Shown here piece after piece: positions 3,901 through 64,000 of a stretch of 64,000 nucleotides of DNA; positions within the stretch are counted from its first letter, which is position 1; every line of letters begins with the position of its first letter. The DNA is taken from NCBI GenBank assembly GCA_014905635.1, contig CM026547.1:248001-312000 (forward strand), given 5' to 3'. The notes below the pieces were generated by a model, which was not told the origin of the DNA, made no database searches, and saw only the letters and a list, made by a program, of their open reading frames with translations. The translations under genes were made by a program, and so were the position numbers. Source of the stretch: Scenedesmus sp. PABB004 (taxonomy: Eukaryota).

Positions 3901-6900
3901 ATGGCGGAGGCCCAGGTGATCGCGGCCATCACCGCCCTGTACCGCAGCGACGATGGCGCCGTGCGCAACGAGGCGGACCGCTGGCTGGAGGCGTGGCAGG
4001 CGAGCGCGGAGGCCTGGACCGTGGCCAACGCGATCCTCCACAACCCGGCGAGCGAGCCGGAGTTCACCTACTTCTGCGCCCAGACGTTGAAGACAAAGGC
4101 GCGCCGCGGCGGCGCCCGCGCCGGCAGCGGCGGCGGCGGCAGCAGCAGCAGCAGCGGCGGTTGGCGCGCGCCGCCGCGCGCCGATCGCGCCGCGCCGGGC
4201 CACGGCCGCAGGTGCAGCGCGACTACGAGGAGCTGCCACCGGACGCGGTGCCGCAGCTGCGCGACAGCCTGCTGGCGCTGCTCCTGCGCTTCGGCAAGGG
4301 CGCGCCCGCGGTGCGCACGCAGCTCTGCCTCGCGATGGCGGCGCTCGCGGCGCACCTCCCCGCGGCGGCGTGGGGCGAGGGCGGCGTGCTGCGCTGGGTC
4401 ATGGACCGACTCGCCGGCCAGCCGCCCGACGTGGCGATGTCGTGCATGCTAGAGCTGCTCACCGTGCTGCCGCAGGTGCGGCGGCCGCGGCGCCGCGCGC
4501 CCGCGCCGCGCGCCCGCACCAGCGGTAGCGCCGCGGGGCCGCGCCGCCGCGCCGCCGCGCCGAGCGCGCCATCGGCGCCGCCGCGCACGCAGGAGGCGGA
4601 CAGCCGGCGCATCTCGAGCCGGCCGGAGCGCCGCGCCGCGTTTGCGGCGGAGCTGCGCGCCGTCATCCCTGACGCGCTCAACCTGCTCACCAGGTGCGCG
4701 CGCGAGCCGCGCGAGCGGCAGCGGGCCACGTGGCGCAGCGCGGCAGCGGCCACCGCGGCGCCCCTCCGCAGCGCACAGTCACGCCTGCCCGGCCCGCGCG
4801 CGCCCACGCCGCAGCTGCCTCTCGCAGCCGGGCGAGACGGTGCGCAGCCAGGTGCTAGAGAGCCTGGGCTGCTGGCTCAAGCTCAGCGGCGGCGACGAGC
4901 TGCCGCCGGGCCTGCCGGACAGCCCACTCGTTGCGGCGGCGCTGCAGGGGCTGGGCGTGGACGGCACCTTCCACGCGTCCGTCGACGCGGTGCGCGGCGC
5001 AGGGCGCGCGGCGGCGGCAGCAGCGCCCGGCGGGGCGGCGGCCGCCGCGCCCGCTCACCACGCCCGCGCGCCGCCGCGGCCGGCGCCGCCGCCGCCGTTG
5101 CCCAGGTGGTTGAGCTGATCTGGGTGACGGTCGACCCGCGCACGTGCGTGCCCAACGGCAGCATGACCGGCCTCTCGCAGCACCTCGTCGGCCAGGTCAT
5201 GGGCCTGCGCCCGCGCTTCAGCGTCGCGCTGCGCAAGGCCATCGCGGGTGCGCGCGGCGGGGCCCGCGCCGGCACACGCGGCCGCCGAGCGGGCCGGCGG
5301 CCGAGCGGCTCCGCGCCGCGCCTGACCGCGCCGCGGCGCGCAGAGTCGGACGGCCGCGACGGCGGCGGCGACGACGTGGACGACGAGTTTGACGACGACG
5401 AGGAGGCGGTCAAGGGCATGGCCCGCCTCTTCTGCGAGGTCGCGGAGGCCTACATCCAGCTCGTGCTCGCCGCCACGCCCGACGTGCGGCGCGGCGCGCC
5501 CGCGCGCGGCGGCGGCGCGGCGGAGCGCAGGCCGGGGAGTCCGCACGCCGCGGCGCCGAGCCCCGCGCGCCACGCCACAACGCCGCCGCCGCCGCCGCGG
5601 CTCGTCCGCGCAGGTGCTGCCGCCGGTTGAGGCGCTGCTGGACGCGACGGCGCACCCGGACCACGAGATCTACAGCATGTCGTTTGGCTTCTGGCACAAG
5701 CTCGCGCGCCAGCTCAGCATCGACCCGGCCGCGGCCGCGGCGGCGGCGCAGCCGCCGGGCTCGCCCGTCGCGCAGGGCTCGCCGGCCGCGGCCGCGGCCG
5801 CGGCGGAGCAGCAGCGGCGGCGTGAGTTCTTCCGGCCGGCGTTTGAGAAGCTCGTCGCGCTCGTGCGGCAGCGCATGCGGTGCGCGGCGACGCGCGGCGC
5901 GGCGCGGGGCCCACGGCACGCGCGGCTCGCGCGCCGCCCGCGCAGCAGGCGACGGAGCGGCGCGCCCCGCACGCGCCTTGCTGCGCCGCAGGCTGCCGGA
6001 CGGCTACCACAGCATGCGCAGCGGCGAGCGCGCCGACTGGCGGCGCTCGCGGCACGCGTGGGGCGACGTGCTGACCGACGCGGCGGTCGCGATGGGCGAG
6101 ACGCGCGCGCTGCAGCTGCTGCTCGTCCCGCTGACGGAGGTCAGCCAGGCGGTCGCGGCGGGGCGGGAGTTTGACTGGAAGACGGCCGAGCTCGCGCTCA
6201 ACTGCGTGCGGTGCGCGCACGGCGCAGCGCGCACGGCAGCGCGCGCCCGCCCGGGCGCGCAGGCCCGGCCGGGAGCGAGCGACGCCCGGCGCATTCGCGC
6301 GCGCCCACGCGCCGCCGCCGCCGCCGCCGCCGCCCGGCCGCAGGGAGCTGGGCGTGCTGCACCGCTCGTTTGCGACGGGCGAGCCGCTGCTGGAGCAGCT
6401 GCTCAGCGCGCTGCCGACGCTGCCGTCGACGCCGCCGCAGCTGCCCTACACGGGCGCGCTGCTCCTCTCGTCGTACGCCGAGTGGCTCGGCCGCACCATC
6501 AGCGCGGGGCACTGCCGCGACCTCCTGCCCCGGTGCGGCGGCGCCGCCCGCGGGCGGCCCCCGCGCCCGCCCGAAGAGCAGCGGCGGCGGGCAGCACGTC
6601 TGCCGGCGCGCCGCCGCCGCCCGCCGACGCCTCGCCCTCCTCTGCCGCCGCCTCTGCCGTCGCCTCTGCCGCCGCCGCAGGCTGCTGCAGATGCTGATGA
6701 CCGCCCTGGGCGACCCGCAGTCGTCGTCGGCCGCCGCGATCGCGATCCGCGACCTCTGCGACTGCTGCGGCCAGCACATGGCGCCGTTCCTGGAGCAGCT
6801 GAGCGCCCTCTACGGCAAGACGCTCGAGGCCGGCGCGGCGACCAAGGCCGCCGCCGCCGCGGCCGCCGCCGCCGCCGCGGCGGGCCCCGCCGGCGTGATC

Positions 6901-8856
6901 GCGGGACCCGTGCTCAACGCGGCGCAGCGCAGCGCGGCGGCGGCGGCGGCCGCGAACAACGCGGCCGCGGCGGCGGGCGGGCTGCACGAGGACGACGTCC
7001 ACGCCGTCATCCAGGGCGTGACAATGGCCCTCACGCGGTGCGTGCGCGCGTGCGCGGGAGGGGGAGGGATGGAGACTGCTGCGCGCGCGCGCTGGACGCA
7101 GCAGCGCGCTGGACTCCGCTGCGCGCTGGACACGGCCCGCCGCGCCCCGGCCGGCGCTGCCGAGCCTTCTCCCGACGCGCGCCGCCGCCGCCGCCGCAGG
7201 TGCCTGCCGGAGCAGCAGCTCCCCACGGCGCTGCAGGCGCTCGCGCGGCCGCTGCTCGCGCCGGTCCAGGCGGCGATGCAGCAGTTCACGCCCAGCCTCA
7301 GCGCGGGCGAGCTGGCCGCGCAGCTGCCGCTGTTCGACCGCCTCGCCACACTCTTCCAGGCCCTGGGCGAGCAGCGCGGGGCCGCGGCGGCGGTGCTGCA
7401 GCAGGCGTGGCCGTCGATCGACGTCGGGCTGCAGCGCGCCGCGGGCGACAAGAGCGCGGTCGAACGCCTGGGCAGGCGCGGCGCGGCGCCGCTGCTCGCC
7501 GGCGGGCGTCGCCGCCGGGCTGGCCGGCCGTGCGCGCGCCGCGCAGCGGCTGCGGGCGGGCGGGCCTCCCAGCCGGCACGCCCCGCCGCCCGCGCCGCCA
7601 GGGTTCTGCGCTACGGCATCAAGGCCTCGGACAGGGCCTGCGCGCCGATGCTGCCCACGCTGCTGGACGCGCTGCCCGCGCGCTTCGCGCAGGTGCGCGC
7701 GCCTGCGTGCCGCGCCCTGCGCCGCGCCGCGCTCACCTCGCCACGCCGCGCTGGCCGCCGCCGCGCTCACCTCGCCGCGCCGCGCTGGCCGCCGCCGCGC
7801 TCACCTCGCCGCGCCGCGGTGGCCGCCGCCGCCGCGCGCCAGACGCGTCACCCGGTCTTCATCTACACCGTCAGCGAGCTGCTCAAGGTCTTTGCCTCCG
7901 AGCCCGCCGCCGACGGGAGCATGGGCCCGATCCTGGCCGCGCTGCTCGGCAGCAGCGCGGCGGCGCTCACGACGCTGCAGGCGCGCGCGGCGCGGCGCGG
8001 CGCCGCGGCGGCCGCGCACGTCGCGCCCTGGCCCGACGGCTCCGACTCGGCGCACGCCGCGTGGTCCGCTCGCTCACAACGCGCCGCGCTCCTGCCGCAC
8101 GCAGGCGATGGACGACCAGCCAGACCTGGTGGACGACACCTTCCTGCTCGCCGGCCGCGCCGCCGCGTACTGCCCGCGCATGCTGCTGCTGCCGCAGCTG
8201 CTGCCGCCGCTGCTCGACACCGCGGTGGTGAGCGAGCGCGCGCGGCGCAGCGGCCGCGCTGCGCCCGCGCGCTCGCGCCGCTGCTCACACGCCGCGGCCG
8301 CCGTGCGCCGCCCGCGCGCGCGCCGCAGCTCGGCGTGCTGGTGCAGCACCGCGAGGCGTGCCGCAGCGTGCTCGCCTTCCTCACGCGCCTGTTTGACCCG
8401 GGCACCGCGCTCGCCGCGCTCGCGCGCCAGCCCGGCCCCGACCAGGCGTCCGCGGTCGCGCTGCTGGAGGCGCAGCTGTCGCGCGTGGGCCAGGCGCTCG
8501 TGCACGTGCTGCTCGGCGGCGTCGTCGGCGCGCTGCCGCTGAGCCGCGTCGAGGACGTCGCGCCCGTGCTGCAGGCGATGCTGCGCCTCGCGGGCGCCAA
8601 GGGCGTGCTCGCGTGGGTCACCGACGCGGCGCGCGCGGTGCCCGACGCCGCGCTCACGCCGAGCGACAAGGACGCGCTCGTCGCCGCCGCGGCGGCGGTG
8701 GTGCAGGGCAACGCGGGCATGGACGGCGGGTGCGAGGGCCTCGAGGCGGCGCTCGAGACGGTCAGCGACCTCGCGCGCCGCAACAAGCGCGCGATGCGCG
8801 CCGCGCAGGCCGCGCTGCTGCCGCCCGCGCTGCACGCGCAGCTGGGCCTCGCGTGA
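3901..8856 (+). CDS. TNPO3: Transportin-3 / MOS14 / Mtr10 family importin-beta (about 15 exons)
   Basis: MAEAQVIAAITALYRSDDGAVRNEADRWLEAWQASAEAW...YFCAQTLKTK|VQRDYEELP...VRTQLCLAMAALA, LELLTVLPQE, KGMARLFCEVAEAY, MSFGFWH and PDLVDDTFLLA. These match the importin-beta N-terminal/Xpo1 pattern of TNPO3. Confidence 0.9.
7726..7820 (+). repeat. Intronic 34-bp tandem repeat (about 2.7 copies), each copy containing CTCAC
   Basis: Repeated unit gccgcgctcacctcgccgcgccgcgctggccgcc. Confidence 0.8.
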
Positions 8857-9151: not shown

Positions 9152-10870
9152 TCACTGCCACTTGGCCTTGTTCGCCGCGGCGCGCGCCGCGGCCTTGGCC
9201 TCCACCTCTGCCGCCACCTGCGGCGGCGGCCGCGATCGACGGCGCGGGCGCGCGCCGCCAGGGCACGCGCCCGCCCGCAGCGCGGCGCGGCCTGCTGGCC
9301 GGCCAGGCCCGGCGCGCGCCGGCCGCGTGCCCCGCAGGCCAGCTGGCCGCACCTTGAACCAGAGGCTGCCGTCGTAGTTGGCGCGGATGGCCTCCTTGCT
9401 GATGACGCCCGCGTCGTCGGCGGCGAGCAGGTAGAGCGTCCACCACTCGAGCCGCTCCGCGATCCTGCGGCCGGGCGCGGCGGCGGCGCGCGCTGGGCGG
9501 CGGCCGCCGCGCCGCGCCGCGGGCGCGCTGCCGCACGCTTGAGCTCAGTTGGGCTTGCAAGCGCGGGGTGCGTCAATCTCAATGCTGTGCCGCACCAGCC
9601 CACGGGGTCCATGATGTTCATGTTGCCCAGGATCATGGCCTGGCCAGGGGCGGCGGTGGCGGCGGCAGCGGGCCCGGGAGCGCCGGTGGGCGGGGCATCG
9701 GGCGGGCGGCCGCCGCTTGAGCTCGGCCACGCGCCGCGCGCCGGTGAGCCCGCGCGCGCGCGCCTGCAGGTCGTCCCAGGAGAGGCCGCCCTTGTTGCCG
9801 CGGTCGTACTTGCTGAAGAGCTCCTCGAAGCGCTGCGGCACGAAGCGGCCCTCCGTGTCGTAAACCTCTGCGGCGCGCACACGTGGAGCGCGCGGCGCGC
9901 GCGGGCTTTGGTCAGCGGCGCGGCGGGACGCGCGCACGGCGAGCCGCGTCGACGACTGGCCCCCGCGCGCGCGCGCGCGCGGCGCACCAGAGTCGCTGCC
10001 GTGCTTGCAGCGGTGCACGTTCTGCGGGCGGCGCGGCGCGGCCGGCGGCGGGGCGGGCGGCGGGGCGGGCGTGCGCGTGCGCATGTGCGGCGGCAGCACC
10101 GGGCCCGGGCCTGCAGGCCAGCTGGTGGCGCGCAGCGTCGACACCAAGCTTGGTGTTCACTCATGAGTGAGCTGATCAGCTCAGCCTCAACCCCCACCTT
10201 GAGGTAGATGCGCATGAAGGGGTCGGGCAGCCACGTGGGCGCGGAGGGGTAGCTGAAGCTGCCTGCAGCGTGAGGGCGCGGGCGGCAGCGGCGGCGGCTG
10301 ACCAGCGCGCGCCGCGAGCGCGCGCGGCCGCTGCGCGGCGGCAGCCGCGCGGCGGCTGCGCGGCGGCCGCGCGCCGTGGATGAAGGGCACGGCGAGGGAG
10401 CTGATGATGCGGCCGAAGCCGAGCCGCCTGAATCCGACGTACGTATCCGATGGCCACAGGATGCCGTCGTTATCGCTGGCGATGCGCGCGCGAGCGGGCG
10501 GGCGGGCGACTGGCGCACGCGCGGCGCGGCGCGCGCGCGGCGCGGGCGCCCGCGCCGCGCGGGCCCCAGCGGGGCCCGAGGCGCCCGCACAGGGGCCTCG
10601 GGCGCTCGCCAGGGCCGCCCTGGGCGATCAACGGCGCGCGCGGGACTGGGGCACGCACCGGTCGAAGAAGTCGCAGTGCTGGTGCAGCACCGTGTGGTCG
10701 GGGCGGCTCAGCGAGTCGGGCGCGCCCTGGGGGCACTCCTTGCTCACGGCCTTGGCGGCCCGCGCGACGCCCGGCTGCGGCAGCGACGCGTCCAGCCCGA
10801 GCGGCAGCGGGCGCGCCACGGTGACCGGCGCCGAGTCGATCGCCGTCGCGAGGCCGTCCACGGACGCCAT
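9152..10870 (-). CDS. Caleosin / peroxygenase (8 exons)
   Basis: TVLHQHCDFFDRDNDGILWPSDTYVGFRRLGF (EF-hand), proline-knot-like PSAPTWLPDPF, NVHRCKHGSDS, YDTEGRFVPQRFEELFSKYD and YDGSLW. Confidence 0.95.
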
Positions 10871-12546: not shown

Positions 12547-12849
12547 GGAGGGGGCAGGCTGGTGTGCGGGCGCTGAGAGACGCGCCGCCGCCGCCCAGGG
12601 GGCTCAACGCGCAACCCGCCGAACCGCCGTGGGTCTCGCCGCTGCGCCCTGCGCCGCCGCCGCCGCGCCGCCGCGCGCCACCGCGCCGCCCGCCTCCACG
12701 GTCGCTTCATACCTCTCGCGAGCGGTCCCGGAGCGCGCTGCCGGCCCGCACAGGCGCGCCCAGCCCTCCCGATCGCCCTGCCATCTTGCGTCTGCTGCTG
12801 CTGATGGCCCCCTGAGCGCAGCGAGCAGCAGGCAGCCCGGGTCGCACCA

Positions 12850-15800
12850 ATGGCGGCCACCGCGCAGGACTCTCTGGCGCCCCTGCGCTCGGGCGAGGGC
12901 AAGAAGGACGAGGACCGGGAGGAAGAGAGTGCGTGCCGGCCGGCCCCGCCCTGGCGTCCGGGGGCCTCGGCGCCGGGCTGTGGAGGAGGCGGGAGCTCCC
13001 GTCCCTGCAACCGCGCCGCGGGCGTGGCAGGCCGCGGCGCGGGGGCGCCGGGAGGGGGCAACCACCGAATCAGTTGCTGCCCCGCCCGCCCCCGCAGCCG
13101 AGTACTCGCCCTTCTATGGCATCGAGAAGGGCGCCGTGCTGCAGGAGGCCCGCATCTTCCACGACCCCAACCTCGACCCGCGGCGGTGCTCGCAGGTGCG
13201 GCGGGGGACGGCAGCAGCGCCGCCGGCAACAGCAGCGCCCGCGCCCGCGCCCGCGCGCGCCCCACGCCCCGCGATCCCGCGCGCCAGGTCATCACCAAGC
13301 TGCTCTACCTCCTCCACCAGGGCGAGACCTTCACCAAGGCGCGGCCGGCGCCCGCGCCGCCGCCGCCCGCCCCACCGCCGCCGGCCGCCCGCGCCGCCGC
13401 CGGCCGCAGAGCGCCGCCGGCGAGCGCCGCCGCCGACGCCGGATGCCCGCACCGCGCGCCGCGTCCCCGCGCGCAGAAGGAGGCGAGCGACGTGTTCTTC
13501 GCCGCGACCAAGCTCTTCCAGGCGCGCGACCCGCACCTGCGGCGCATGGTGTACCTGGTGCTCAAGGACATCTGCCCCGGCAGCGACGAGGTCATCATCG
13601 TGACCTCGAGCCTAATGAAGGACATGAACGCCAAGGTCGAGCTCTACAGGTGCGGGCTGTGGGGCGCGTGCAGGGCGCGTGTGGGCCGCGCCTGCGAGGC
13701 GGCGGCGGAGAGCACAGGAGGGGGGCCGGCGCGCGGGCAAGGGCGCGGCGGGCGGGGGCGGCGCGGCGGGCGAGGGACGCAGGATGGGGGCAGCGGGCGC
13801 GGTGGGCGCGAGCGCCGCCGCCGCTGCCGCGCCGGCGCCGCAGGTCCAACGCGGTGCGCGTGCTGTGCCAGATCGTGGACGGGCAGCTGCTGGCGCAGAT
13901 CGAGCGCTACCTCAAGCAGGCGGTCGTCGACAAGAGCGCCGTCGTCGCGGCGAGCGTGCTCGTGTCGGCGCTGCACCTCATCAAAAACGTGAGAGCCAGC
14001 CGCGGCAGCGGCCGCCGGCGACCGGCGAGAGGCGGCGAGCGGCGATCGGCGGCGGCGGCAGACGCAGCGGCGGCAGCAGCAGGCGCAGCGGCAGCTGGGG
14101 CAGCAGCGGCGGCAGCAGCTGTCCGGCGCGCCAGTCGCGCCCCGCGCGCTGCCGCCGCCCCGCCGCCGACGCCCTGCCGCTGCTGCTGCCGCGCAGAACG
14201 GCGAGATCATCAAGCGCTGGGTGAACGAGGTGCAGGAGGCGGTGACGAGCAAGCACCCGATGGTGCAGTTCCACGCCGTCGCGCTGCTGCACGCGCTGCG
14301 CGCGACCGACCGCCTCGCCGTGAGCAAGCTGGTCAGCCAGCTCACGCGCGGCAGCGTGCGCAGCCCGCTCGCGCAGTGCCTGCTGGTGCGCTACGTCAGC
14401 CAGGTGCGGCGGCGGCGCGGCGCGCGGCGCAGCGCGCGGCTTCGCGCCAGGCCTGGCGGCGTTGCGCGGCCGGGCCGCGCCTCGGTGCTCTGCCGCCCCA
14501 CACCCACCCGCCCGCCACTCGCCCGCCCCGCGCGCAGGTGATCGCGGACAGCCAGCCGGGGCCCAACGGCGAGGCGCGGCCGTTCTACGACTTCCTGGAG
14601 AGCTGCCTGCGCCACAAGGTGTGTGTGTGGGGGGGGGGGGGGTGCAGGGCCGGCGCGCGCGCCCGGCGCGGCGCCAGGCGGCGGCGGCAGCGGGTGCGGC
14701 GCCTGCCGCGCGCGTGCGCCGCCGCGCGCGCGCCCGCTCACGCCCGGCCCCGCCCGGCCGGTGGCCGCGCAGGCGGAGCTGGTGATCTTTGAGGCGGCGC
14801 GCGCGATCTGCAACCTGCGCGACGTGAGCGCCCGCGAGCTGCAGCCCGCGATCACAGTGCTGCAGCTCTTCCTGAGCAGCAGCAAGCCCGTGCTGCGCTT
14901 CGCGGCCGTGCGCACGCTCAACAAGGTGCGCCCGCGGCCGCGCTAAGCCTACGGGCGGGCGCGCGCTGCGCTGCGCGGCGCCGCCGCCCGGCCCGTCTCT
15001 GCTTCCTGCGGGCCGCTGAGCGCGCGGTTGCGCGCCGGCGCGCCGCCACCCCCGCGGCGCCTGGCCAGGTCGCGATGAGCCACCCCATGGCGGTGACCAA
15101 CTGCAACATCGACATGGAGTCGCTCATCACCGACCAGAACCGCTCCATCGCGACGCTCGCCATCACGACGCTGCTCAAGACGGGTGCGCCCCGCGCTGGC
15201 GCGGCGCGCGGCTGCGGCGCGGCGCGGCCGGCGGCAGAGCACGCGCGCGCTCACGCCGCACCTCGCTGCCCCGCGCCGCCGCTCGCGCGTGGGCGCCAGG
15301 CAACGAGGGCAGCGTGGACAAGCTGCTGAAGACCATCGGCGGCTTCATGGCAGACATCCCTGACGACTTCAAGGTGCGTGTGCGTGAGGCTGTGGCTGTG
15401 GCTGTGTGTGTGGCTGTGGGTGTGTGGTGGGTGGGTGGGTGGTTGCGTGGTGGTGGTGGTGGGGGGAGGGTGCGTCGCTGGTGCGGGCGCAGCGACGGCG
15501 CACGCGCGGGGCGCGCGGGGCGCGCCGCGGCGACGCCGCCCGCCGGCCGCCGGCGTCGCCGGTTGCGCGCGCAGGTCGTGGTCGTGGGCGCGATCCGCAG
15601 CCTCGCGGTCAAGTTCCCGGCCAAGCACCGCGGCCTCATGGCCTTCCTGGCCAACGTGCTGCGCGAGGAGGGGGGCTTCGAGTACAAGAAGGCCATCGTC
15701 GCCGCCATCCTCGCCATCATCCAGGCACGCCGCGGCGCCCGCGCGGCGCGGCGCAGCACACACAGCGCAGCGCCGCGCGCCGCGCCGCGCCCGCGCGGGC

Positions 15801-18375
15801 CGCCCCGCTCCCGCGCGCCGCGCGCCGACCCCGCTGCCGTGCTGCCGCCGCGCCGTGGCTGCGGGCGCGCAGGAGATCCCGGACGCGCGCGAGTCGGGGC
15901 TGGGGCACCTGTGCGAGTTCATCGAGGACTGCGAGTTCACCTTCCTCAGCGTCGAGGTGCTGCACCTGCTCGGCCAGGAGGGGCCCACCACCAAGGAACC
16001 CGCGCGGTGAGACCGCGGCGCGGCGCGGCGCGCAGCGCACGCCGGGCCGCCGCCGCCGCGCCCCGGCGGGCGGCGCTCAACAACGTTGACCGGCCAACAC
16101 ACCTAACGCATGTTTTGTAATGCTGGATGTTATAACGCACAGGTACATTCGCTACATCTACAACCGCATCATCCTCGAGAACGCGACCGTGCGCGCGGCG
16201 GCGGTGTCGGCGCTCGCGTCGTTCGGCGCGCGCTGCCCCGAGCTCACCGAGCGCGTCGTCGTGCTGCTGCGCCGCGCCCTGTACGACAACGACGACGAGG
16301 TGCGGCGGCGGGGAGGGACGGGCCGCGGGCGCCGCGGCCTGGGCGCACGCTGGGCGGGCGCGCCGCGCCGCGAGCCGCTGTGCTGAGCTCGCTGAGCCCG
16401 CTGAGCCCGCGCCCGCCGCCGCCGGCGCAGGTGCGCGACCGCGCGACGCTGCACCTCACGCAGCTCGGCGGCGGCGCGGGCGGGCCGGACGCGATCCGGC
16501 CGCAGCTGGACGTGAACCTCGCGGCGATGGAGGCGGCGCTGCGGACGTACCTGGCGGAGGACGACACCGCGACCGCGTTCGACGTGGTGCGCGCCGCCCG
16601 CGGCACGCGCGCCCGGCGCCTGGCCGCGGCGGCCCCGCGCGCGCGCGCAATCTGACCCACCGCCGCGCCCGTGCCACCGCCACCGCCGCCGCCGCGCAGT
16701 CGGCCGTGCCCAAGGCGCCGCCGCCGGAGGCCAAGCTCCCCAAGGGCGGCGCCGGCGGCGCCGCGGCCGCGGCGGCCGGCGCGGCGCCGGGCGCGGCCGC
16801 CGGCGCGGCCGGCGGCGCGGGCGGCGCGGGCGTCGGCGCCAACGCGTACGAGGCGGCCATCAAGGCGCGGCCCGAGTTTGCGGCGCTCGGACCACTCTTC
16901 AAGAGCTGCGCGCCCGTGCGGTGAGCGCGCGCGCGCGCGCACGCTGCGAGCGGCCGCCGCCTCTCCCTCCCGAGCCCCCCGCGCTCACACGGCAACGCAC
17001 CGCGCACCCCGCCGCGCCCCGCGTGCCCCCCTGCGCCCCCTCAACCCTGAACCCTAAACCCAGGTTGACCGAGGAGGACACTGAGTACGTCATTCACGCG
17101 ATCAAGCACATCTTCCCGGCCCACCTGGTGCTGCAGTTTGACTGCACCAACACCATCGCCGAGCAGCGCCTCGAAAACGTGACCGTGCTCACAGACCTCG
17201 CCGACGCGGTGCGCCGCCGCGGGCGGGGCCAGCGCTGGCAGCCGCCGCCGCCGCCGCGGCGGGCGGGGGGCGCGCCGTCGCCCGGGGCGCCGAGCCTCAC
17301 CGCCGCACGCTGCGCCTCACCGCCGCACGCCGCGCCGCGCCACAACAACAGCCCGAGTTTGAGGCGGAGAGTGCGCTCGCGCTGCCGAGCATGCCGCTGC
17401 ACGAGGTGGGGCAGTGCTACACCGTGCTGCGCCGCGGCGGCGGCGGGCTGCCGGGCGGCAAGATGGCGTGCGTGCTGCGGTTCACGGTCAAGGAGATCGA
17501 CCCCGGCACGGGCGAGGCGGAGGAGGAGGGGTACGAGGACGAGTACCAGGTGCGAGGGGGCTGGGAGCAGGGCCTGGGAGGGCCCCTAAACCCTGGGGAC
17601 CTGGGGAGGGGCGGGAGCGGAGGGAGCACGGCGGCAGCGGGGGCGCGGCTGCACGCGGCGCCGGGGGCAGGGGAGCTGCTGGCCCGCGCGCGCGGCGGCC
17701 TGAGCCGACCGCCGACCGCGTCACGTGCCTCGCTCCTCGCACCGCAGCTGGAGGACGTCGAGGTTAGCGGTGCCGACTACATCCGGCCGCTGCCGCTCGG
17801 CAACTTCCGGGCCGCGTGGGAGGAGGTCGACCCCGGGACGGAGCGGGAGGACGACTACGGCCTCGGCCCCCGCGACAGCCTGCAGGCGCGCGCCGCTGCG
17901 CCGCCGCCGCCGCGCCGCACCGCCCGTGGCGCCCCCCTCGTCCCCGCGCTCGCCCGCTCTCACGCCCCCGTCCGCCTCCCGCGCGGCGCCGCGGCCTGCC
18001 GCAGGACACGGTGGAGACGGTCATGGGCATCCTGGGCATGCAGCCGTGCGAGGGCACCGAGGCGGTGCGCCCAACGCGCGCAGCCACACCGTGCTGCTCG
18101 CGGGCGCGCTGCCGGGCGACGAGCGCGCGCTCGTCAGGTGCGCCGCGCGCCGCCGCGCCGCGCCGCACCGGCCGCCCGCTGGCGCGCTGGCATGCGCCCG
18201 CTCCGCCGCCGCCGACGCCGCCGGCCGTTGTCCCTCGCCCGCGCTCGCGCTCGCTCCGCGCCGCAGGCTGTCGTTTGGGCTGGGCGCCGACGGGCAGGTG
18301 GCGATGAAGGTCGTCAGCCGGGGCGACAGCGAAGCGGCGAGCGAGGCGGTGCACGCGGTCATTCAGGAGGCCTGA
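12850..18375 (+). CDS. COPG: Coatomer subunit gamma (about 20 exons; apparent 1-nt frameshift near 18068)
   Basis: [92 protein letters not shown] and [12 protein letters not shown]. Confidence 0.97.
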
Positions 18376-22970: not shown

Positions 22971-22977
22971 AAGCAAG

Positions 22978-24841
22978 CTAGCTGGCCAGCTCCAGCTTCA
23001 CGAGCGGCTGGCTTTGGCTCTGCGGCGGGGCGGCCTCCAGCGGCGACTGCGGCTGCGTGCCGCTGCCGGGGAGCGACCGGCGCCGCTCGCCGGCGGACGG
23101 CGACGCCGGCGGCGCCTGCCCCGAGTGCGTGCTTGCGTGGGCCGCCGCCGCCTGCTGGCGCCGCGCGGCCTCCTGCTGCTCCACCAGGTGCTTGCACACT
23201 GCGCGCCGGCGCGCGGGGGCGGGCGGCGGCGTGAGACCGGGCGGGCGGCGGCGTGAGACCGGGCGGCGCGCGCACCCCGGCAGCCTCCCCCCCCCCCCCC
23301 CCCCCCCCGCCGCCGGCGCGGCGGCGCCAGCTCACTGCTAAGCGGCTGGCTCCAGAACGGCCAGGAGCGCACGATGCTGGCCGCGAGCTGCTGCTTGGAA
23401 AGCTGATTTAGCCACAAGAATGTCAGATTCCTGTGCACCTCGCGCAGCCTCATAACGGTCGCGAGGAGCTGCTGCAGCAGCGCGTCCATCTCCTCAGCGT
23501 CCTCCGCGCTCAGCCCGCCGCTCACCAGCCCAAACTGCTGCCACGGCCGCGCCACGGCCGGCGGCGCGGCCGGCGCGGCGCGGGCGCCCGCCGCGCCCGC
23601 CGCGCCTGCCGCGTCCGCGCCGCCGCTGCCGCCGCCGCGGCCGCCGGGCGTGGGCGCCGACGCCGCGCTGCTACAGCTGTGCGCGGGCGACTCGCCCGCG
23701 CCGGCCGACGCCAGCCCCGGCGGCGGCGGCGTGCCGGTGAGCACGTGCAGGCGCCGCACCATCGCGTGCGACGCCGAGATGAGCGGCGCCGCCGTGCTCT
23801 GATACACCTGGCGGCCGCGGCGGCGGCAGCGCGCGGGAGCGCGGGGGCGCGGGGGCAAGTGAGCCGGCGCCCCGCCCAAAACCCAACGGGCCCCCGTCGG
23901 GGCCCCCGCGGCCGCGGCGGCGGCGGCAGTGGCGGCGGCGCGGCGTGCCTGGTAGCCGGTGCAGAGGTGCGGGACCTGCTCCGGCCGCAGCGCGAGGTGG
24001 CCGAGCACTCGCTCCCAGTGCTGCGCCGGCGGCTCCTGGGGCTGCAGCGTGTCCAGGTTGAGCGTGGCGAGCGAGAGGTTGATCTGGTCGCTCACGACGT
24101 GCAGCAGCATCGCGAGCTCGGTGTACTCGTCGACGACGTCGGCCAGGCTGTATGACAGCAGCGGCGCGCCGCCGTCGTCGGCGGAGAGCACGATCGCGAG
24201 CTTTGACGTGAGGCGCTGCAGCTCCGCGGCGACCTGCTCCACGCTGAAGCCGCGCACGCGCTCCACGCGCTCGGGCGTGAACGCCGCGCGCATGCAGCGC
24301 GCCGTGTAGGGCTCGTCCGGTGCCGCCGCGCTGCTGCCCACCTGCCCCAGCAGCTCGTGCACCTGCGCGGCGGCAGATGTGGGCGCGCCGCCGCCGCCGC
24401 CGCTGGGTCACCGCTGCTGGCACCGGCGCCAACGCTGGCGGCTGTCGCTGGTCGGGCCGCCGTCGGCGCCGGCGCGACCGCTGGCGGCGCCGCCGCCGCT
24501 GCGCGACGCCGCCCGCTCAGCCGAGCCGCCCGGCGCACCTGCACGTCCTGCAGCATGCTGCGAGCTACCCCCGCGGGGTCGCCGCCGAACGCCGCGCAGC
24601 AGCGGCCGATGAAGTGCAGGCAATTGGCGCCGGCGCTGATGCTCTCCAGCAGCACGCGCTCCCGCGCCCTCAGCGCGGCCTGCCGCTCCGCCAGGGCCTC
24701 GCGCCGGAGCGACAGGTCGGCTAGCTGCGCCTCCAGCTGCTGAATGGCGAGGCGCCGGCTGGGTAGCCCGTGCTTGTCCCTGGCCGCCGCTGCCTTCGCC
24801 GCTCGTCCCGCGCGGCCCCCTCGCCGCGGGCGGCCATCCAT
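22978..24841 (-). CDS. bZIP-like basic/coiled-coil protein of unknown function (4 exons)
   Basis: Basic N-terminus, heptad-like LEAQLADLSLRREALAERQAALRARERVL, C-terminal blocks EPPAQHWERVLGHLALRPEQ and LSKQQLAASIVRSWPF. Splicing gives a continuous frame to a TAG at 22978. Confidence 0.65.
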
Positions 24842-26655: not shown

Positions 26656-30379
<3,724 letters not shown>

Positions 30380-36491: not shown

Positions 36492-37672
36492 ATGGCGGCG
36501 CTCGGCGCCTGGCGGCTGGAGCTGTTCTGCAAGTCGCCCGAGGAGCTCCGGGGCTCGACCCTGCCCCTGCTGCGCCGCCTCGGCGTGCGGCGCGTGAACG
36601 TGCCGAACAAGGCCGCCGACGACCGGCTGCTCGAGCGCGTCGCCGCGCTGCAGGCGCGGCGGCCGCGGCACGCCTGGCCCGCGCGGCGCGCCTGGCCCGC
36701 GCGGCGCGCCTGGCCAGGCTGCTGCCGCCGCGTCCCACAGCCCGCGCGCCCGCGCAGGAGGGGCTGCCGGGCGCCGAGGTGTGCGTGCACTACTCGATGA
36801 AGTACAACTACGCCCGCACGCCCGCCGCGACGCTCGCGCGGCTGCAGGCCTTCCTCGCCGCGCTCGCCGGCGCCGCGCCGCGCGGCGCGCGCCCCGCGAC
36901 CGTGCTGCTCGTGAGCGGCGGCGGCAAGCGCCGCGCGTTTGACTCGCTCGCCGCGCTGCAGGCGCTCGCCGCTGCCGCCCCAAGCCGCCCGCGTGCGCAG
37001 CCGCCGGGCGCGGCGGCAGCGCCGGCGGCCGGCGCAGCCGCGCAGCGCGGCGGCCGCCGCAAGCGCGGCCGCAGCCCCGAGCCGGGCGCCAGTGCGCCGG
37101 GGCCGCAGCAGCAGCAGCAGGAGCAGGAGCAGCAGGAGCAGCACGAGCAGCAGGCGTGGCAGGCGCAGCTGCCGCCGCTGGCGGTCGCGTTCAACCCCTA
37201 CCTGCCCGAGCCGGAGCAGGCGGCCGAGCGCACGCGGCTGCGCGCCAAGCTCGCCACGGGGCTCGTCGCCGCGGTGTACCTGCAGATGGGCACCGACCTG
37301 GACGCGCTGGCGGCCGGCCTGGCGGCGCTGCGCGCGGCCGTGGCGGCGGAGGTGCCGCCTGGGCGGCCGGCGCCGTCCGTGCTCGGCAGCGTGTTCCTCC
37401 CCACGAAGCGCCTGCTGGCGCAGATGCGGTTCAGGCCCTGGAGCGGCGTGCTGCTGAGCGACGAGTACCTGAGCAGCGTGGCCGCCGCGACCGCGCTCAC
37501 GCGGCGCCTGCTCGCCGCGTACGACGCGGCCGGCGTCGCGCCGCTGCTCGAGAGCGCGGTGCGCAGCGACGCCGACGCGGCGGCGGCGGCGGGCCTGCTG
37601 TCGCTGCCGGCCCTGGGCGGCGGGCCTGCTGTCTCTGCCAGCCCAGGCGCCGAGCGCGCGCGTGAGGGTTGA
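36492..37672 (+). CDS. Conserved hypothetical protein, possibly MTHFR-like FAD-linked oxidoreductase fold (2 exons, GC-AG intron)
   Basis: RVNVPNK, VCVHYSMKYNY, VLLVSGGG, VAFNPYLP, ERTRLRAKL...VYLQMGTD and GSVFLPTKRLLAQMRFRPWSGV. The fold assignment comes from motif order only. Confidence 0.65.
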
Positions 37673-48100: not shown

Positions 48101-51100
48101 GGCGGCCAAGGCCGAGAAGCGGGCAGCGCGCAAGACGGGTGCGGGGCGCGCGGGGCCGCCGCCCCTGCGTGGCGGCTGCGCCGCGCCGCGGCGGCGCCGC
48201 CGCCGCCGCCGACGCCGCCGCCGCCGCCCGATGCTGCGCGTCCGCAGCCGCCGCGGCCGCGGGCGCCGCCACCAGCAGCCGCTGGGCAAGCAAGCTGCAG
48301 GCGCTGCAGCAGCAGGCGGCCGTGCCGGGCGCCGCGGCGGCCGCCGCAGAGCTGTCGGACGGCTCTGACGCCGACGAGGAGGCGGCCTCGGACGCCGAGG
48401 ACGGCGGCGCCTTTGCCGACGCCGCCGGCCCCAACCTGGCCGCCGCGGGGCCCGCCGGCGCGCCGTCCGCGCTCGTGGAGCTGCAGCTGCCGCCGCTCTG
48501 CTCGGTGCGCCAGCTCGCGGCGCTGCTCGGCGCGGAGCTGGGCGCGCTCGAGGACCTGCTGCGGGAGCAGCTGGGCGAGGAGGTGCAGTCGGGTGCGTGC
48601 GGCGGCGCTGTGCGCGCACCTCACGCGCCGCGCCCTGCCCCCCGCCGCGCCCGGGCTCGCTCCTCGCGCCGCGCTGAGCGCGGCCCCGCCCCGGCGCGCC
48701 GCCCCGCAGCGGAGGACCTGGTGTCGTTCGAGTCGGCCGAGCTCGCTGCGCTGGAGCACGGCCGCGTGCTGCTGCGGCCGCCCGAGGACGCGGCGGCCGC
48801 GGCCGCGGCGGCGCCGCGCCCGCCGATCGTGACGGTGATGGGCCACGTGGACCACGGCAAGACGAGCCTGCTCGACGCGCTGCGGCGCAGCAACGTCGCC
48901 GGCGGGGGTGAGCGGAGGGGCCACGCGCGCCGGCGCCCACGCCCCGCGTCGCCGTCCACCCCCCCCCCTCCCTCTCTTCTCTCTCCCTCTCTCCCTCTCT
49001 CTCTCTCCCCCCCTCTCTCCCTCTCTCGCTCTCCCTCTCACACACCCACACGACGACCACGCACCCCACACAACCAACAGAGGCGGGCGGCATCACGCAA
49101 CACATCGGCGCGTTCGAGGTCTGCCTCCCCGGCAGCGGCGCGACGCTGACCTTCCTGGACACGCCCGGGCACGCTGCGTTTGGCGCGATGCGCGCGCGCG
49201 GCGCGGCGGCGACCGACATCGTGGTCATGGCCGTCGCGGCCGACGACGGCGTGATGCCGCAGACGCGCGAGGCGCTCGCGCACGCGCGCGCGGCGCGCGT
49301 GCCGGTCGTCGTCGCGCTCACCAAGTGCGACCTGCCCCAGGTGCGCGCGGCGCGCGGCGGCGGCGGGGGAGGGGGGGCGTGGGCGGTGGCGCGGCGCGCC
49401 GCGGGGGGCGGGGCGGGGCTGGGCGGATGGCCGTCCGCGCGCGGGGCGGCGGCCAGCGGCCCGCGACCGACCGCGCGGCCGCCGCCGTCCACCGCCCTCG
49501 CAGGCGCGGCCCGACCAGGTGAAGCTGCAGCTGCTGGCGGAGGGCCTTGAGCTGGAGGAGTTTGGCGGCGACGTGCAGTGCGTGGAGACGGCCGCGCGCG
49601 CCGGACGAGGCCTCGACGCGCTCGAGGAGGCGCTGCTGCTGCAGGCGCGGCGCGCGCGCCGCCGGCCCTCGCTGCGCCGCCGCCGCCGCCCCGCGCCGCC
49701 GCCTGGCGCTGGCTCCGGGCCGGGCTCGCCGCCGCTCGCCCGCCCCGCCTCACGCCCTTGCCGCCTGCCCCGCCCTGCACCGCCCTGCCCCTGCCCCCCC
49801 CCCCCCCAGGCGGAGGTCATGGAGCTCAAAGCCCCGCGCGACGTGCCCGCCGCCGCGGTTGTGGTCGAGGCGCAGGTGCGCCCAGCCGCCCCCGCCCCCC
49901 CCCCCCGTGTCTGGCCTCCGCTGGCGCGCCGCCCTGCGCGCCATGCGCACCGGTCCTGCCCTGATCGCGCCGCGCCGCTCCACGCCCCTCCCCCACACAC
50001 CCACACACGCACACGCACGCGCGCACACACGCCCACGCGCAGCTGTCCAAGGGCCTCGGCCCCGTGGCCACCGTCATCGTGCGGCGCGGCACGCTGCGCC
50101 CGGGCGACGCAATCGTCGTCGGCACGGAGCACGGCCGCGTGCGCGCGCTGCGCGACGGCCGCGGCGCCGGGCTCGACGCCGCGGCGCCGGGGCAGGCCGC
50201 GGTCGTGTCGGGCCTGCGGGGCATCCCGGCCGCCGGGGACGAGCTGGTCGTGGTCGGCAGCGAGGCGCGCGCGGCGCGCATGGCGGCGGCGAGGTGCGCG
50301 CGACGCAGCGCGCGGGCCGCGGCGCGGGTCCCGGCGCGCGCGCGGCGCGCCCGCGGCGCGCCGTGCCTGCGCCGCTGCCGCCCAGGCTGCGGCCGCCGCG
50401 CGCCCCGCGCTGCCCGCAGGGCGTCGCGCGCCGCGGCGTTCCGGCAGAGCCAGCTCGCGCGCGTGGCGGCGGAGAGCGGGCGCCGCCAGGCGGAGCTGCG
50501 CCAAGCGGAGTATGAGCGGTGCGGCCGGCGGCGCGCCCGACGCCGGCGGGGCCGCGGGGGCTGCGCCGCGCGCGAGCGCGCCGGCCGCCGGGGCGGGCGG
50601 GGGCCCGACGCGCGCCGCGCGCGCCCCCGCGCGCGCCCCCGCGCCGCGCTCGCAGGAAGCGCAAGCTGCGCGCGCGCATCCGCGAGCTGCAGCTGGGCGG
50701 CTTCAAGCGCCACACCGACGGCAGCCTGCGCGCCGCGGTGAGCGAGAGCATCTCCCTTGGCGACGCGCAGCTCAAGCTCGCCGCCGCCGCGGCCGAGGCC
50801 GCCGCGGCGGGGCGGACGCTCGACGTGGCCGCCGCGGCGCGGCAGCTCGGCGTCGCGCCGCCGCCGAGCGGCGACGGCGACGCTGGCGCCGCCGCCGGCG
50901 CCGACGGCGCGCCCGTCGGCGCGGCGCTGCCGTCGCTGCCGCTGGTGATCAAGGCGGACGTGCAGGGCTCGGCCGAGGCGGTGCGCGACGCGCTGCTGTC
51001 CGCGGCGGCGGGGCGGGTCGACCCCAAGGTCGTGTTCTGCGGCGTCGGGCCCGTGACCGCGAGCGACGCGCACCTCGCCGCCGCGACGGGCGCGGCGCTC

Positions 51101-54532: not shown

Positions 54533-54604
54533 CGCCACCGCCGGGAATTGAACCCGGGCCTCCTGCGTGACAGGCAGGGATACTGACCACTATACTACGG
54601 CGAC
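54533..54604 (-). tRNA. trnD-GTC: tRNA-Asp (GTC), identical second copy
   Basis: Exact reverse complement of 52482-52553. Confidence 0.96.
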
Positions 54605-55831: not shown

Positions 55832-57976
55832 TCAGACCTGGGGCTGCGCGGGCACGCCCGCAAACTCGGCGCTCACGTCCCACACCGCGGCGGCCATCTT
55901 CTCGTCGTACGCGTGGCTCCCCGGGCGGCAGAGCTTGGTGCGGCCCATGAGGCCGTTGCCCAGCAGCCTGGCGGCGCGGCGCGGCGCGCGCAGGGGCGCG
56001 GCGGCGTGGGTTTAGCGCCACGCGCTCGGCGCGCGGGGCGCGGGGGGCGCGGGGTCCGAGGCGCGCGGCGCGGCGCGCGCACTTGCGCAGGGGCCAGTCC
56101 AGGAAGGAGAGGAAGACGGTGCTGCCGCCCCAGAGGTCGCCCTTGACCTTGGCCAGGCCCTTGCCGCCGAGCGCCCAGTCGTTGCACAGCTGCGGCACCC
56201 GCGGCGCAGCGCGGACGCGCGTCGGCCGGCGCTGCCGCTGGCGCGCGGCCGACGTGCCGCCGAGAGGCGCGGCACGGCGCGTGGGGCGCGGCGGTGTGCA
56301 GCTCGCAGGACACGCGCGGCGCGGCACAGCGCGCGGCGCGCCTGGGGCCAGGTGAAGACGCCGCGCGCGTAGTAGCGCAGGTCCTGGTGGGGCAGCAGCG
56401 GCGAGCCGTCCTTGCCGGCGCGCTTGTCGGCGTCCCAGTCGCACGTCGCGGCGTAGATCACCGCCTGCGCGCACGCGCGGCGCGGCGGCGCGCGGCGGCA
56501 CGCAAAGCGCGGGGTCGGCGGTCGGCAGCACGTGCGGCGCGCGGGGGTCGGCGGCGCGGGCGCGCGCGCTGGGGTCGGCGGCGCGCGTGCGCGCGCGTTC
56601 GCCCAGCTCGCTGGCGCGGCGCGGGCGCGCACGCGCCTGCGCGCCGTCCTCGGGCGGGGCGTAGCAGTTGTCGATGAGGGTCTTGATGAAGCCCCGGCCG
56701 AGCTTGGGGCTGTTGTTGTAGATGTTGGTGCGCACCGCGCCCGGGTCGGCCGCGACCGCCTGCAGCCGCGCGCGCCCAGCCTGCGCGGCGGCGCCGGCGC
56801 CGGCGGCGGCACATCGCGGCGGCGCCACCGGCCGCACGCCCGCGCCGCACGCGCCCGTCCGAGCCCCGCGCCCCGCCGCAGCGCCCCGCCGCAGCGCCCC
56901 GCCGCAGCGCCCCGCCGCAGCGCCGCCGCCGCGTCCGCGCCCGCGCCTGCGCTGCAGCTCAAACGCGGTGTACACGTTGGCGAGCTTGTTGTGCTGGTAA
57001 AAGCCGCCCTTCCAGTCGGTGAACAGCGCGCGCGCGTCCCTGGGCGCGCGCGCGCGCGAGCGCGGCGCGGCGCGCGGGCGCGGGTGAGGGGGGGGGGGGC
57101 CCGCCGCCGCGCCGCGCGACCGCCCGGCGCGCCGCCGTGCTGCTCCTGCGGCGCGCCTGATGGTGGTGATGCGGTGCGTGACGGAGACCACGTTGACCAC
57201 GCGCGCCTTGGAGGCGACCAGCTTCTTCTCCAGCAGCCGCGTGAGCGTGTACGGCCCGAGGTGGTTGACCTGCGCCCACGGCGGGCGCCCGCGCGCGCGC
57301 GTCGGCGCCCGCCGCCGCCGCCTGCTGCTGCGGCTCCGCGTGCGCCCGGGCGCCGCGCCGCGCCTGCGTGAGCATGCCGACGCCCTGCTCGGTGAATGAC
57401 TTCTTGGTGTAACCGAGGCCGGCGTTGTTCACCAGGATGTTCAGCGGCCCCGGCCGCGCCGCGAGCGTGGCGGCAAAGGCCTTGACGCTCTCCTGGCGCA
57501 TGAGGTCGAGCGGCGGGCCGACCTCAACCTTGGAGCCGGGGAACTTGGCCCTGCGCGCGCCAGCGGGAGGGGGCGCGGGGCGCGGTCGCGGGCGGGGGAG
57601 GAGTCGGCAGCAGCATCCGCGGGCGGCGGCGCTGGCGCTGCGCCGCCCGGCGGGCGCGTGCGTGGACCGCCGGCGGCCGGCACGGCGGCGCACATGATCT
57701 CCTTGGCGAGCTTGGCGCCGGCGTCGGTGTTGCGCACGCCCAGGATGACGGTCGCGCCGTGCTCTGCGCACGCGGCGCGGCGCGCGCGACGGCTCAACCG
57801 ACGCGCGCCGCTGCGCTGCGCTGCGCCCCGCGCGCGGCGCCCGCCGCGCCGGCGCCCCGAGCTCGGGGCAGCTCGTGGGGCGTCCCGGCCGCACCTGCGA
57901 GGTACTCCGCGGTCACCTGGCCGATGCCAGAGGTGGCGCCCGTCACCAGGGCCACCTTGCCCGACAGGTCCGCCAT
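55832..57976 (-). CDS. Short-chain dehydrogenase/reductase, retinol-dehydrogenase-like (9 exons)
   Basis: KVALVTGATSGIG, LVNNAG, VNHLGPYTLTRLL, catalytic YQHNK and DPGAVRTNI. Confidence 0.93.
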
Positions 57977-62721: not shown

Positions 62722-64000
62722 TCACTCCCCGTGCTCGGCGCCCTCCGCCGCGGCGGCGGCGCTCTCCAGCGCGGCCGCGACTTGCCCCGCGAGCGCGGGG
62801 TCGGCCGCCAGCACCGCCTCCTTGAGCGTGGCGAGATAAAAATCCTCCATGTGCTGCCCCAGTGCCGACCCGTCAACCTGCGGGCGCGCCCGGGCGCGCA
62901 GGCGCGTGCGCGGCCCGATGTCGGTCGACACCGACCGAGCGGCCGCCCCGCCCGGCAGCGGCGCGGCGTGCGCGGCGCGGCGCGACGCAGCGCGGTGCGG
63001 CGCCAGCCGGCGGCGGCGGCTGTGGCTGCAGCGGCAGCTGCACGCACCAGGGCGTTGAGGATTGCCATCTCGTGCTCTTGGATCGCGTCCCGTAGCGCCT
63101 GCGACGCGAGGTCCATGACGACCTCGGACACCTCCCTGCCCTCGCCGAGCACGTCCTTGGAGCCCGCCTCAAACACGAGCGCGCCGCCCGGCTCAAGGCG
63201 CACGCCCGTGCGCACGTGCGCGTAGCCGAGCAGGCGCGGCACGCTGCGGGCGCGGCGGCGCGGTGGGCGGCGCGGGCGCGTGGGCGCGTGGGAGCGCGGA
63301 CGAGGGGATGCGGCGGCGGCGGCGGCGACAGTGCGGCGGTGCCGCGCCTGGGCACGATGTCGGCGGCGTTGGTCACGCGCCACGCGCGCCCGCCGAGCCG
63401 CGCGTCAAACTCGTCCGCAAACGCCTTGTTGCCGACGCGGGGCGCGCCAAACGTAAACATCGACACGCGCCGCGCCGCCGCCCACGCGCTGCCGCGGCGC
63501 CGGGGCGGGCGGGCGGCGGGGCGGGGCAGGCGGCGGCGGGCGGGCGGCGGCGTCGGGGGCAGGCCTCCTCCCCACGCGGCCGGCGGGCGTTGGATGGAGC
63601 CCCCGGACGCCCCGGCGCCGCGCACCGCGGCGCAGCGCCGCGCGGCGCGCGCACCGGCGCCCCGCCAGGTCGTACGCACACAGCGTGGCCAGCGCGCCGC
63701 CGAGGCTGTGCCCCGTCACAAACACCTGCGCCGCCGCGTGGGCGCGCGCGCGAAGGGTCGGCGCCGGCGGACCGGCCGGAGCCGGCGCGCGCGGCGCGGC
63801 CCAGCCGGGGCGCATCACGTCGCCCACCTGCCAGGGCCGCTCGGGGTGGCGTCCGCGGTGAGCTGCTCCACCAGGCGCATCACCTGCGCGGCGTCGCAGG
63901 CGGCGCGGCGCGTCGGGATGCGTCAGCGCCTGCGCGCGGCGCTGCGGCCCGCCGCGGCCCGCCGCGGCCCGCCGCCCAGCTTCTCCCTGCATGCCTTGGG
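62722..64000 (-). CDS. Class 3 lipase, 3' part (gene continues beyond the window)
   Basis: VFVTGHSLGGALATL, FTFGAPRVGN, RVTNAADIVP and QHMEDFY. Confidence 0.92.

Follow-up and report, generated by a model that had tools for sequence, protein, structure and literature searches.

Frequent GC-AG introns with a GT-like donor motif in a 64-kilobase window of the GC-rich green alga Scenedesmus sp. PABB004

Introduction

The genes considered here lie in a 64,000-nucleotide stretch of the genome of Scenedesmus sp. PABB004 (contig CM026547.1, positions 248,001 to 312,000), which is referred to throughout as the window and in which positions are counted from the first letter. Four of these genes were resolved intron by intron: those for a TNPO3-like importin and for coatomer gamma (COPG) on the forward strand, and those for propionyl-CoA carboxylase beta (PCCB) and an SDR protein on the reverse strand. 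Alignment with homologous proteins fixes 52 introns in them, of which 37 are GT-AG introns and 15 (29%) are GC-AG introns, a class that averages 1.2-1.3% of introns (PMC6310983 and the accessible text of PMC3033335). In a reading that we hold to be probable, the GC-AG introns of the window are real and of the ordinary U2 type, account for about one-fifth to one-quarter of its introns, and stem from GC-biased pressure acting under a standard spliceosome.

The setting is one of extreme base composition. The assembly of PABB004 (S. glucoliberatum, GCA_014905635.1) is described in the accessible text of PMC12571836 as comprising 39.8 megabases with 7,092 genes and a guanine plus cytosine (G+C) content of 78.5%, and within the window G+C ranges from 76 to 82% in 4-kilobase steps. 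For comparison, that paper lists genomes of about 57% G+C for Tetradesmus, 65% for Monoraphidium and 71.5% for Raphidocelis. At around 80% G+C, stop-to-stop open reading frames are uninformative, there being 280 of them, overlapping one another, and a scan for codon periodicity reveals numerous short coding segments on each strand. The dinucleotide GC makes up 21.6% of all dinucleotides in the window, GT 3.6% and AG 4.8%. A bare GC is thus uninformative, and the junctions were for this reason fixed by homology.

Exon-intron junctions in four genes

Junctions were placed with a self-written protein-to-genome spliced aligner that permits any donor dinucleotide and requires an AG acceptor. The homologs, 7 for SDR, 10 for PCCB and 12 each for COPG and the TNPO3-like importin, are mostly derived from transcripts or bacteria and are hence intron-free. 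The resulting models contain 8 introns in SDR, 12 in PCCB, 18 in COPG and 14 in TNPO3; the count omits one PCCB intron at the 5' end (30202), where the alignment is weak, and the final COPG introns (18046-18266), which the alignments did not settle. At the 38 introns of SDR, PCCB and COPG the aligner selected 26 GT donors, 11 GC donors and a single CG, the latter at SDR intron 5. The original prediction, made from the sequence by itself, had assigned a GC donor to about one intron in five, an observation that holds. Each of the 15 GC junctions coincides with a coordinate that it had given, and GC is indeed present at all 18 of the coordinates that it had listed; 17 of these follow an exonic AG (the exception, 29016, follows ATG) and 17 read GCGCG (the exception, 15725, reads GCACG). 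The introns are collected in Table 1.

Table 1. GC-AG introns of the window, with donor context (exon/intron) and supporting evidence. Penalties for GT-only alignment are in BLOSUM units.
Gene	Status	Donor	Positions	Strand	Evidence
SDR	GC-AG intron	cag/GCGCGG	57270..57363	-	7/7 orthologs; GT-only -64; in P0158
SDR	GC-AG intron	cag/GCGCGC	57040..57156	-	7/7 orthologs; GT-only -71; in P0158
SDR	GC-AG intron (intron 5)	cag/GCGCGG	56781..56946	-	restores ortholog-identical 'RRLGARG', then frameshift
SDR	GC-AG intron	cag/GCGCGT	56465..56636	-	7/7 orthologs; GT-only -126; in P0158
SDR	GC-AG intron	cag/GCGCGC	56190..56341	-	6/7 orthologs; GT-only -56; in P0158
PCCB	GC-AG intron	cag/GCGCGC	29588..29728	-	9/10 homologs; GT-only -31
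PCCB	GC-AG intron	cag/GCGCGC	29400..29531	-	10/10 homologs; GT-only: no intron there, -70
PCCB	GC-AG intron, without exonic AG	atg/GCGCGG	28839..29016	-	9/10 gene-wide; fully blind 4/4 unchanged
PCCB	GC-AG intron	cag/GCGCGC	26833..26984	-	3/10 gene-wide, 6/10 locally; GT-only -105
COPG	GC-AG intron	aag/GCGCGG	13339..13476	+	8/12 gene-wide; unique canonical placement; GT-only -63; in P0039
COPG	GC-AG intron	cag/GCACGC	15725..15872	+	11/12; GT-only -76; in P0039
COPG	GC-AG intron	cag/GCGCGC	17886..18004	+	6/12 gene-wide, 12/12 locally; GT-only -66; in P0039
TNPO3-like	GC-AG intron	aag/GCGCGC	4099..4211	+	8/12 homologs; GT-only -45; ab initio agrees
TNPO3-like	GC-AG intron	cag/GCGCGG	7476..7601	+	6/12, and 4/12 on a 3-nucleotide shift; GT-only -20; ab initio agrees
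TNPO3-like	probable GC-AG intron, weakest of the 15	cag/GCGCGC	7981..8104	+	GC-only mode 8/10; ab initio agrees
Caleosin	predicted GC-AG intron	cag/GCGCGC	9640..9763	-	ab initio only
Caleosin	predicted GC-AG intron, without exonic AG	cacg/GCGCGC	10263..10374	-	ab initio and Pfam
22978-24841 gene	predicted GC-AG intron	cag/GCACGC	23808..23948	-	ab initio only
	predicted GC-AG intron	cag/GCGCGG	36654..36757	+	ab initio only
Putative ORC3 (label of the original prediction)	predicted GC-AG intron	aag/GCGCGG	38268..38361	+	ab initio only
IF-2	predicted GC-AG intron	cag/GCGCGG	49645..49809	+	ab initio
Class-3 lipase	predicted GC-AG intron	cag/GCGCGG	63244..63347	-	ab initio

Most placements in the three well-conserved genes hold up without any assumption about the splice sites. 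In a fully blind mode, with any donor and any acceptor allowed, 30 of the 38 placements in SDR, PCCB and COPG predict a messenger RNA identical to that of exactly one canonical form, GT-AG at 21 and GC-AG at 9, and in no case do both forms fit. At the remaining 8, ties at the protein level shift the boundaries by a few nucleotides, and these were settled solely in the mode that requires an AG acceptor. Among the 12 GC junctions of these well-conserved genes, 9 therefore have a unique, fully blind GC-AG placement. Restricting the aligner to GT donors costs 28-126 BLOSUM units per GC junction in SDR, PCCB and COPG and 20-45 units in TNPO3. The reverse restriction, which admits only GC donors where SDR, PCCB and COPG have GT junctions, costs 5-31 units, a small penalty because GC is ubiquitous in this DNA. 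Were the 15 non-GT junctions placed at random, GC would turn up at 14 or more of them with a probability of 6e-9. The second intron base (+2) is T or C at all 52 donors, with GA and GG donors absent. The junctions carry GC, and they do so without a usable GT nearby.

The explanation that these donors are artefacts, either boundaries misplaced in the vicinity of a real GT or T-to-C errors in the assembly, draws on the sixfold excess of GC over GT in this DNA, on at least one false GC call made by our ab initio gene parser (8240, where homology places a GT donor at 8228), and on what seems to be a one-nucleotide indel of the assembly in the SDR gene. Such artefacts are hardly credible as the source of the pattern: GT-only alignment loses score at every one of the 15 junctions, the unique blind placements were obtained with no splice-site model, 13 of the 17 AG/GCGCG words in the four genes sit exactly at exon ends, and base errors would not target the +2 position of sites preceded by AG.

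Individual junctions differ in how tightly they are held. At PCCB 29016, switching to the GT at 29025 removes 3 residues from the protein, for a penalty of 28 units. The original prediction had described five of the eight SDR introns as having GC donors; four of these are chosen with 6 or all 7 of the 7 orthologs, and the fifth, at 56946, can be retained if a one-nucleotide indel is also admitted. With the donor left free, all 7 orthologs place a CG-AG intron there, one base off 56946, and in the exon that follows, within 56760-56781, the peptide agrees with orthologs over 'LGARG' before a one-base slip of frame some 15-20 nucleotides downstream of the junction; judged from the sequence, the deletion is probably an assembly indel. 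TNPO3 is less conserved than the other three genes, and its junctions are accordingly resolved less finely. At 7981 the blind mode is divided between 7981-8104 and 7996-8119, while the GT alternative at 8020 is an off-consensus GTCGCG donor that costs 35 units; a Pfam search with the TNPO3 exons around 7981 gave no usable match.

Public gene models lead to similar placements. Single exons of COPG and SDR match P0039 and P0158, respectively, two NCBI protein models assigned to Scenedesmus sp. PABB004, at 99-100% identity, the next-ranked matches being to Tetradesmus obliquus, Raphidocelis subcapitata and algal transcripts. Aligned back to the window, and read after equivalent placements had been slid into register, the two models contain the seven GC-AG introns so marked in Table 1. 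P0158 (55835-57976, reverse strand) reads through the intron at 56946-56781 and thereby gains about 55 residues, which explains its length of 406 amino acids as against 348-353 in the orthologs.

The donor motif and the exonic AG

Apart from the base at +2, GC donors match the species' own GT consensus, GTGCG (G at +1, +3 and +5, C at +4). In SDR, PCCB and COPG, the 26 GT donors have G at +3 in 25, C at +4 in 20 and G at +5 in all 26, and the 12 GC donors have these bases in 11, 12 and 12, respectively. Over all four genes, positions +3 to +5 read GCG in 14 of 15 GC donors and 29 of 37 GT donors, which bears out the earlier description of the GC donors as mostly AG/GCGCG sites mirroring GTGCG.

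The two classes differ on the exon side. The last two exonic bases are AG at 14 of 15 GC donors and at 16 of 37 GT donors (odds ratio 18, Fisher p=0.0014); stated the other way round, 14 of the 30 donors with a preceding AG are GC, and among the other 22 there is a single one. On the sense strand of the four genes, 13 of 17 occurrences of AG/GCGCG and 12 of 14 of AG/GTGCG are donors, and when the AG is disregarded the figures become 14 of 368 for GCGCG and 29 of 69 for GTGCG. Two GC donors without an exonic AG had been noted originally, and both recur here among the total of 22 GC introns in Table 1, that at 29016 fixed by homology and that at 10374 predicted. Exons also contain four AG/GCGCG and two AG/GTGCG words at which the homology models place no donor; these may serve as cryptic or alternative sites.

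Intron bodies in these genes consist of 46.5% C and 6.8% T, so that a neutral pyrimidine at +2 would be C in about 87% of cases. T nevertheless persists at +2 in 21 of the 22 donors without an exonic AG and in 16 of the 30 with one. T at +2 thus appears to be still under selection, strongly where the AG is missing and weakly where it is present. In this DNA, A and T are the rare and informative letters, and an A at -2 makes up for a T lost at +2. The same compensation is known for ordinary, U1-recognized GC-AG introns, whose 5' sites match the consensus more strongly at their other positions and so offset the +2 mismatch to U1 (Sheth et al. 2006, accessible text of PMC1557818).

The dependence of GC donors on an exonic AG argues for ordinary recognition of the U1 type under strong GC pressure. 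It also bears on the alternative that 5' splice-site recognition has been altered in this lineage, through the U1 5' end, the U6 ACAGAGA box, U1C/Luc7 or Prp8, such that C at +2 is accepted about as readily as U. The very high share of GC donors (15 of 52), and the fact that they make up nearly half of the donors preceded by AG, speak in its favor, and for Aureococcus and M. pusilla, in which U1 is unchanged, the accessible part of PMC3033335 raises a possible role for U1 snRNP proteins or for modification of RNA bases. We nonetheless regard altered recognition as unlikely, since the near absence of GC donors at sites lacking the exonic AG fits ordinary U1 pairing and not a relaxed +2, no base besides T and C occurs there in 52 donors, an orthologous intron in less GC-rich relatives uses GT, and the two best-known algae rich in GC-AG introns have a canonical U1 5' end, according to the same portion of PMC3033335. 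A related proposition, that a change in U1 snRNP proteins, snRNA modification, U6 or Prp8 has loosened the check at +2 so that GC donors nearly equal GT donors once an exonic AG is present, we consider if anything a little less likely. Changed machinery, whether in U1/U6, U1C or Prp8, is not needed to explain the data of the window.

Introns in the remainder of the window

For the other genes of the window, a gene parser was built from codon log-odds and from donor and acceptor matrices, all trained on SDR, PCCB and COPG. When each gene was left out of the training in turn, 35 of the 38 introns were predicted exactly, and a GT donor was never called as GC or the reverse. On TNPO3, on which it had not been trained, 13 of 14 introns match the homology-based model, the miss being the false GC call at 8240. 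Before filtering by strand, the parser chained genes across intergenic and antisense stretches; after filtering, it reports 129 introns in the whole window, 83 with GT and 46 with GC donors. The share of GC donors is about 17-36% depending on the filters: 28-32% with stricter ones, and 17-22% when a GC donor is counted only if AG precedes it.

Of the 129 introns, 23 have GC donors without an exonic AG, and these calls are mostly doubtful, examples being 8240, which homology contradicts, and 30619. Two calls that do follow AG, 36962 and 41420, are likewise doubtful, their donors being off-consensus. The credible GC calls outside the four genes are the seven predicted introns of Table 1, and together with the 15 homology-fixed introns they give 22, the number originally arrived at by hand, although five of the seven come from the parser only.

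The remaining two, 10374 and 49645, have additional backing. The exons flanking 10374 match positions 16-48 and 51-70 of the Pfam Caleosin profile, which are contiguous when the split codon and the first residue are counted. The exon before 49645 aligns from end to end with residues 118-164 of the IF-2 chain 1zo1_I, ending in '...LLQ'; a search of the PDB with the 22-residue exon that follows gave no match. In the same caleosin gene, the match of the exon upstream of 9763 to Caleosin positions 83-115 reaches nearly to the end of that exon, which is followed by an exon of 14 residues, and the exon upstream of 63347 matches positions 97-133 of the 140 in Pfam Lipase_3. Pfam searches with the exons flanking 36654, 38268, 23948 and 49645 returned no usable match.

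Relatives and comparable systems

The original prediction had suggested that orthologous introns be compared in relatives, and for one intron this was achieved. Metagenome contigs were scanned by alignment with SDR, and among 80 loci the close relatives are four only (L001-L004, 58-71% identity). In three of them (L001-L003), which are algal contigs of 64-68% G+C, the sole real intron is in phase 0 after residue 113, with the donor gcgcag/GTGAG, and occupies the same position as the GC intron at 57363 in the window. 'Introns' of 31-39 nucleotides that were also aligned in metagenome loci are alignment gaps and were discarded. Because it shares its position and phase with a GT intron in three contigs, intron 57363 is old.

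This age bears on the possibility that the GC donors derive from a proliferating, introner-like family of mobile introns with a GC 5' end. There is a precedent in dinoflagellates, in some of which introner-derived introns are predominantly GC-AG (accessible text of a review, PMC11282704). As an explanation for the window, however, it is very improbable. Besides the old intron at 57363, an all-against-all blastn comparison among the 38 introns from SDR, PCCB and COPG yields only short, low-complexity, GC-rich matches that do not exceed about 46 bits. These occur in either orientation and make no distinction between GT and GC introns, and no full-length family emerges. The median lengths of the two classes are also close, at 144.5 nucleotides for GC introns and 143 nucleotides for GT introns.

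A more fitting precedent is provided by other algae with GC-rich genomes. In the accessible text of PMC3033335, GC-AG introns constitute 39.6% of introns in Aureococcus, 22.2% in Micromonas pusilla and 7.7% in Chlorella, these shares are tied to high G+C, and the 11 nucleotides at the 5' end of U1 are of the consensus type in Aureococcus and in two Micromonas strains. Pelagophytes have around 14-17% GC-AG introns, which the accessible text of bioRxiv 10.1101/2024.10.30.620910 attributes to GC content. As far as this window goes, PABB004 resembles Aureococcus anophagefferens, Micromonas pusilla CCMP1545, Chlorella and Pelagomonas calceolata in combining a high nuclear G+C content with a GC-AG share far above 1% or so, and, like those of the GC-rich algae of Iwata and Gotoh (2011; PMC3033335, accessible text), its introns are otherwise ordinary and short. 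It differs from M. pusilla (65.9% G+C) and Aureococcus (69.5%) in being a chlorophycean of the Sphaeropleales with 78.5% G+C, and its share is that of one window. By analogy, the pattern seems to be the same GC-AG excess as has already been described in these other algae.

The introns also share features with the ordinary GC-AG introns of the U2 type that occur in animals and plants (PMC6310983 and the accessible text of PMC1557818), namely the GC and AG ends, a GT-like donor with stronger flanks, and an interchange of GT and GC between relatives, seen here as GT in the three contigs and GC in the window. In contrast, the animal and plant introns form only about 0.4-1.3% of the total (Sheth et al. 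2006; Pucker and Brockington 2018), so that the class is 15-30 times commoner here, and in PABB004 the consensus is itself GC-rich (GTGCG/GCGCG), with its information residing mostly in A at -2 and T at +2. The GC-AG introns of the U12 type have the same termini, but their GCATCC motif (accessible text of PMC1557818) is matched by none of the 15 GC donors, all of which are GCGCG or GCACG.

A search of the literature found no GC-AG share for PABB004; Calixto Mancipe et al. 2022 (doi 10.1111/jam.15311) was outside the reach of that search, and the words 'splice' and 'intron' are absent from the accessible portion of PMC12571836.

Other features of the window

A number of introns are unusual in composition. 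Some contain few adenines (17886-18004, 7476-7601 and 56781-56946, with 2-3 besides the terminal AG), and in the COPG intron at 17886 the two adenines are located 86 and 43 nucleotides from the 3' end; the choice of branch point in such introns must be highly restricted. SDR intron 5 (56781-56946) holds about four tandem copies of a GC-rich unit of about 13 nucleotides. At the other extreme is PCCB intron 8 (27932-28259, reverse strand), which at 328 nucleotides is the longest in the four genes and, with 60% G+C and 100 A residues, is an outlier among introns of 70-93% G+C.

Model P0039 (1233 amino acids, 11153-18372, forward strand) joins a gene with an acetyltransferase Pfam match (exons 11153-12543) to COPG by means of a 279-nucleotide intron. 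COPG orthologs are about 890-916 amino acids long and align from about 12830 onward, and from these alignments P0039 looks like a fused model of two genes.

An Rfam scan of the whole window returned one small nucleolar RNA and two tRNAs; a spliceosomal small nuclear RNA was not found. The first is a C/D-box RNA of the snR60/Z15 family (33561-33657, reverse strand, 61.8 bits). It lies inside an intron predicted by the parser on the same strand (33772-33441), which suggests that it is intron-hosted, subject to that prediction. The tRNAs are both tRNA-Asp(GTC), at 52482-52553 on the forward and 54533-54604 on the reverse strand, and are therefore inverted copies about 2 kilobases apart, with equal Rfam scores.

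Interpretation and significance

The mechanism that we favor, GC-biased pressure under a standard spliceosome, would operate in three steps. Extreme GC-biased substitution, through mutation bias or biased gene conversion, would repeatedly convert the T at +2 to C. The standard spliceosome would accept the C wherever the remaining pairing with U1 is strong, above all where A is present at -2 and G at -1. Where this supporting pairing is missing, selection would purge the C.

Several points weigh against this interpretation. Splicing at the GC sites in vivo is something that we infer from homology and public gene models. The count spans the one window, and three of the four genes checked were the GC-rich examples of the original prediction, so that 29% may overstate the genome-wide rate. 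The GC intron at 56946 requires the assumed one-nucleotide assembly indel, TNPO3 7981 and PCCB 26984 are placed less firmly than the others, and the change between GT and GC at a shared position is seen in a single orthologous comparison, that of 57363. Finally, Micromonas RCC299, with 64% G+C, has only 2.7% GC-AG introns (accessible text of PMC3033335), and GC content is therefore not the whole story.

If the check at +2 had in fact been loosened, an alga with about 78% G+C would offer a natural setting in which to identify the factors that enforce GU at 5' splice sites. As it stands, the finding extends to a chlorophycean a pattern already known in a pelagophyte and a prasinophyte, and opens no new question. 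In evolutionary terms, the window provides a measure of how the constraint on 5' splice sites responds to extreme GC pressure. The excess of GC-AG introns matters chiefly for correct gene models: gene finders that are limited to GT donors, or that penalize GC donors, can be expected to break a large fraction of the genes of this and similar GC-rich algae. The public annotation contains just 7,092 genes, and annotation problems are met in this window too, with an intron read through in P0158 and two genes apparently fused in P0039.

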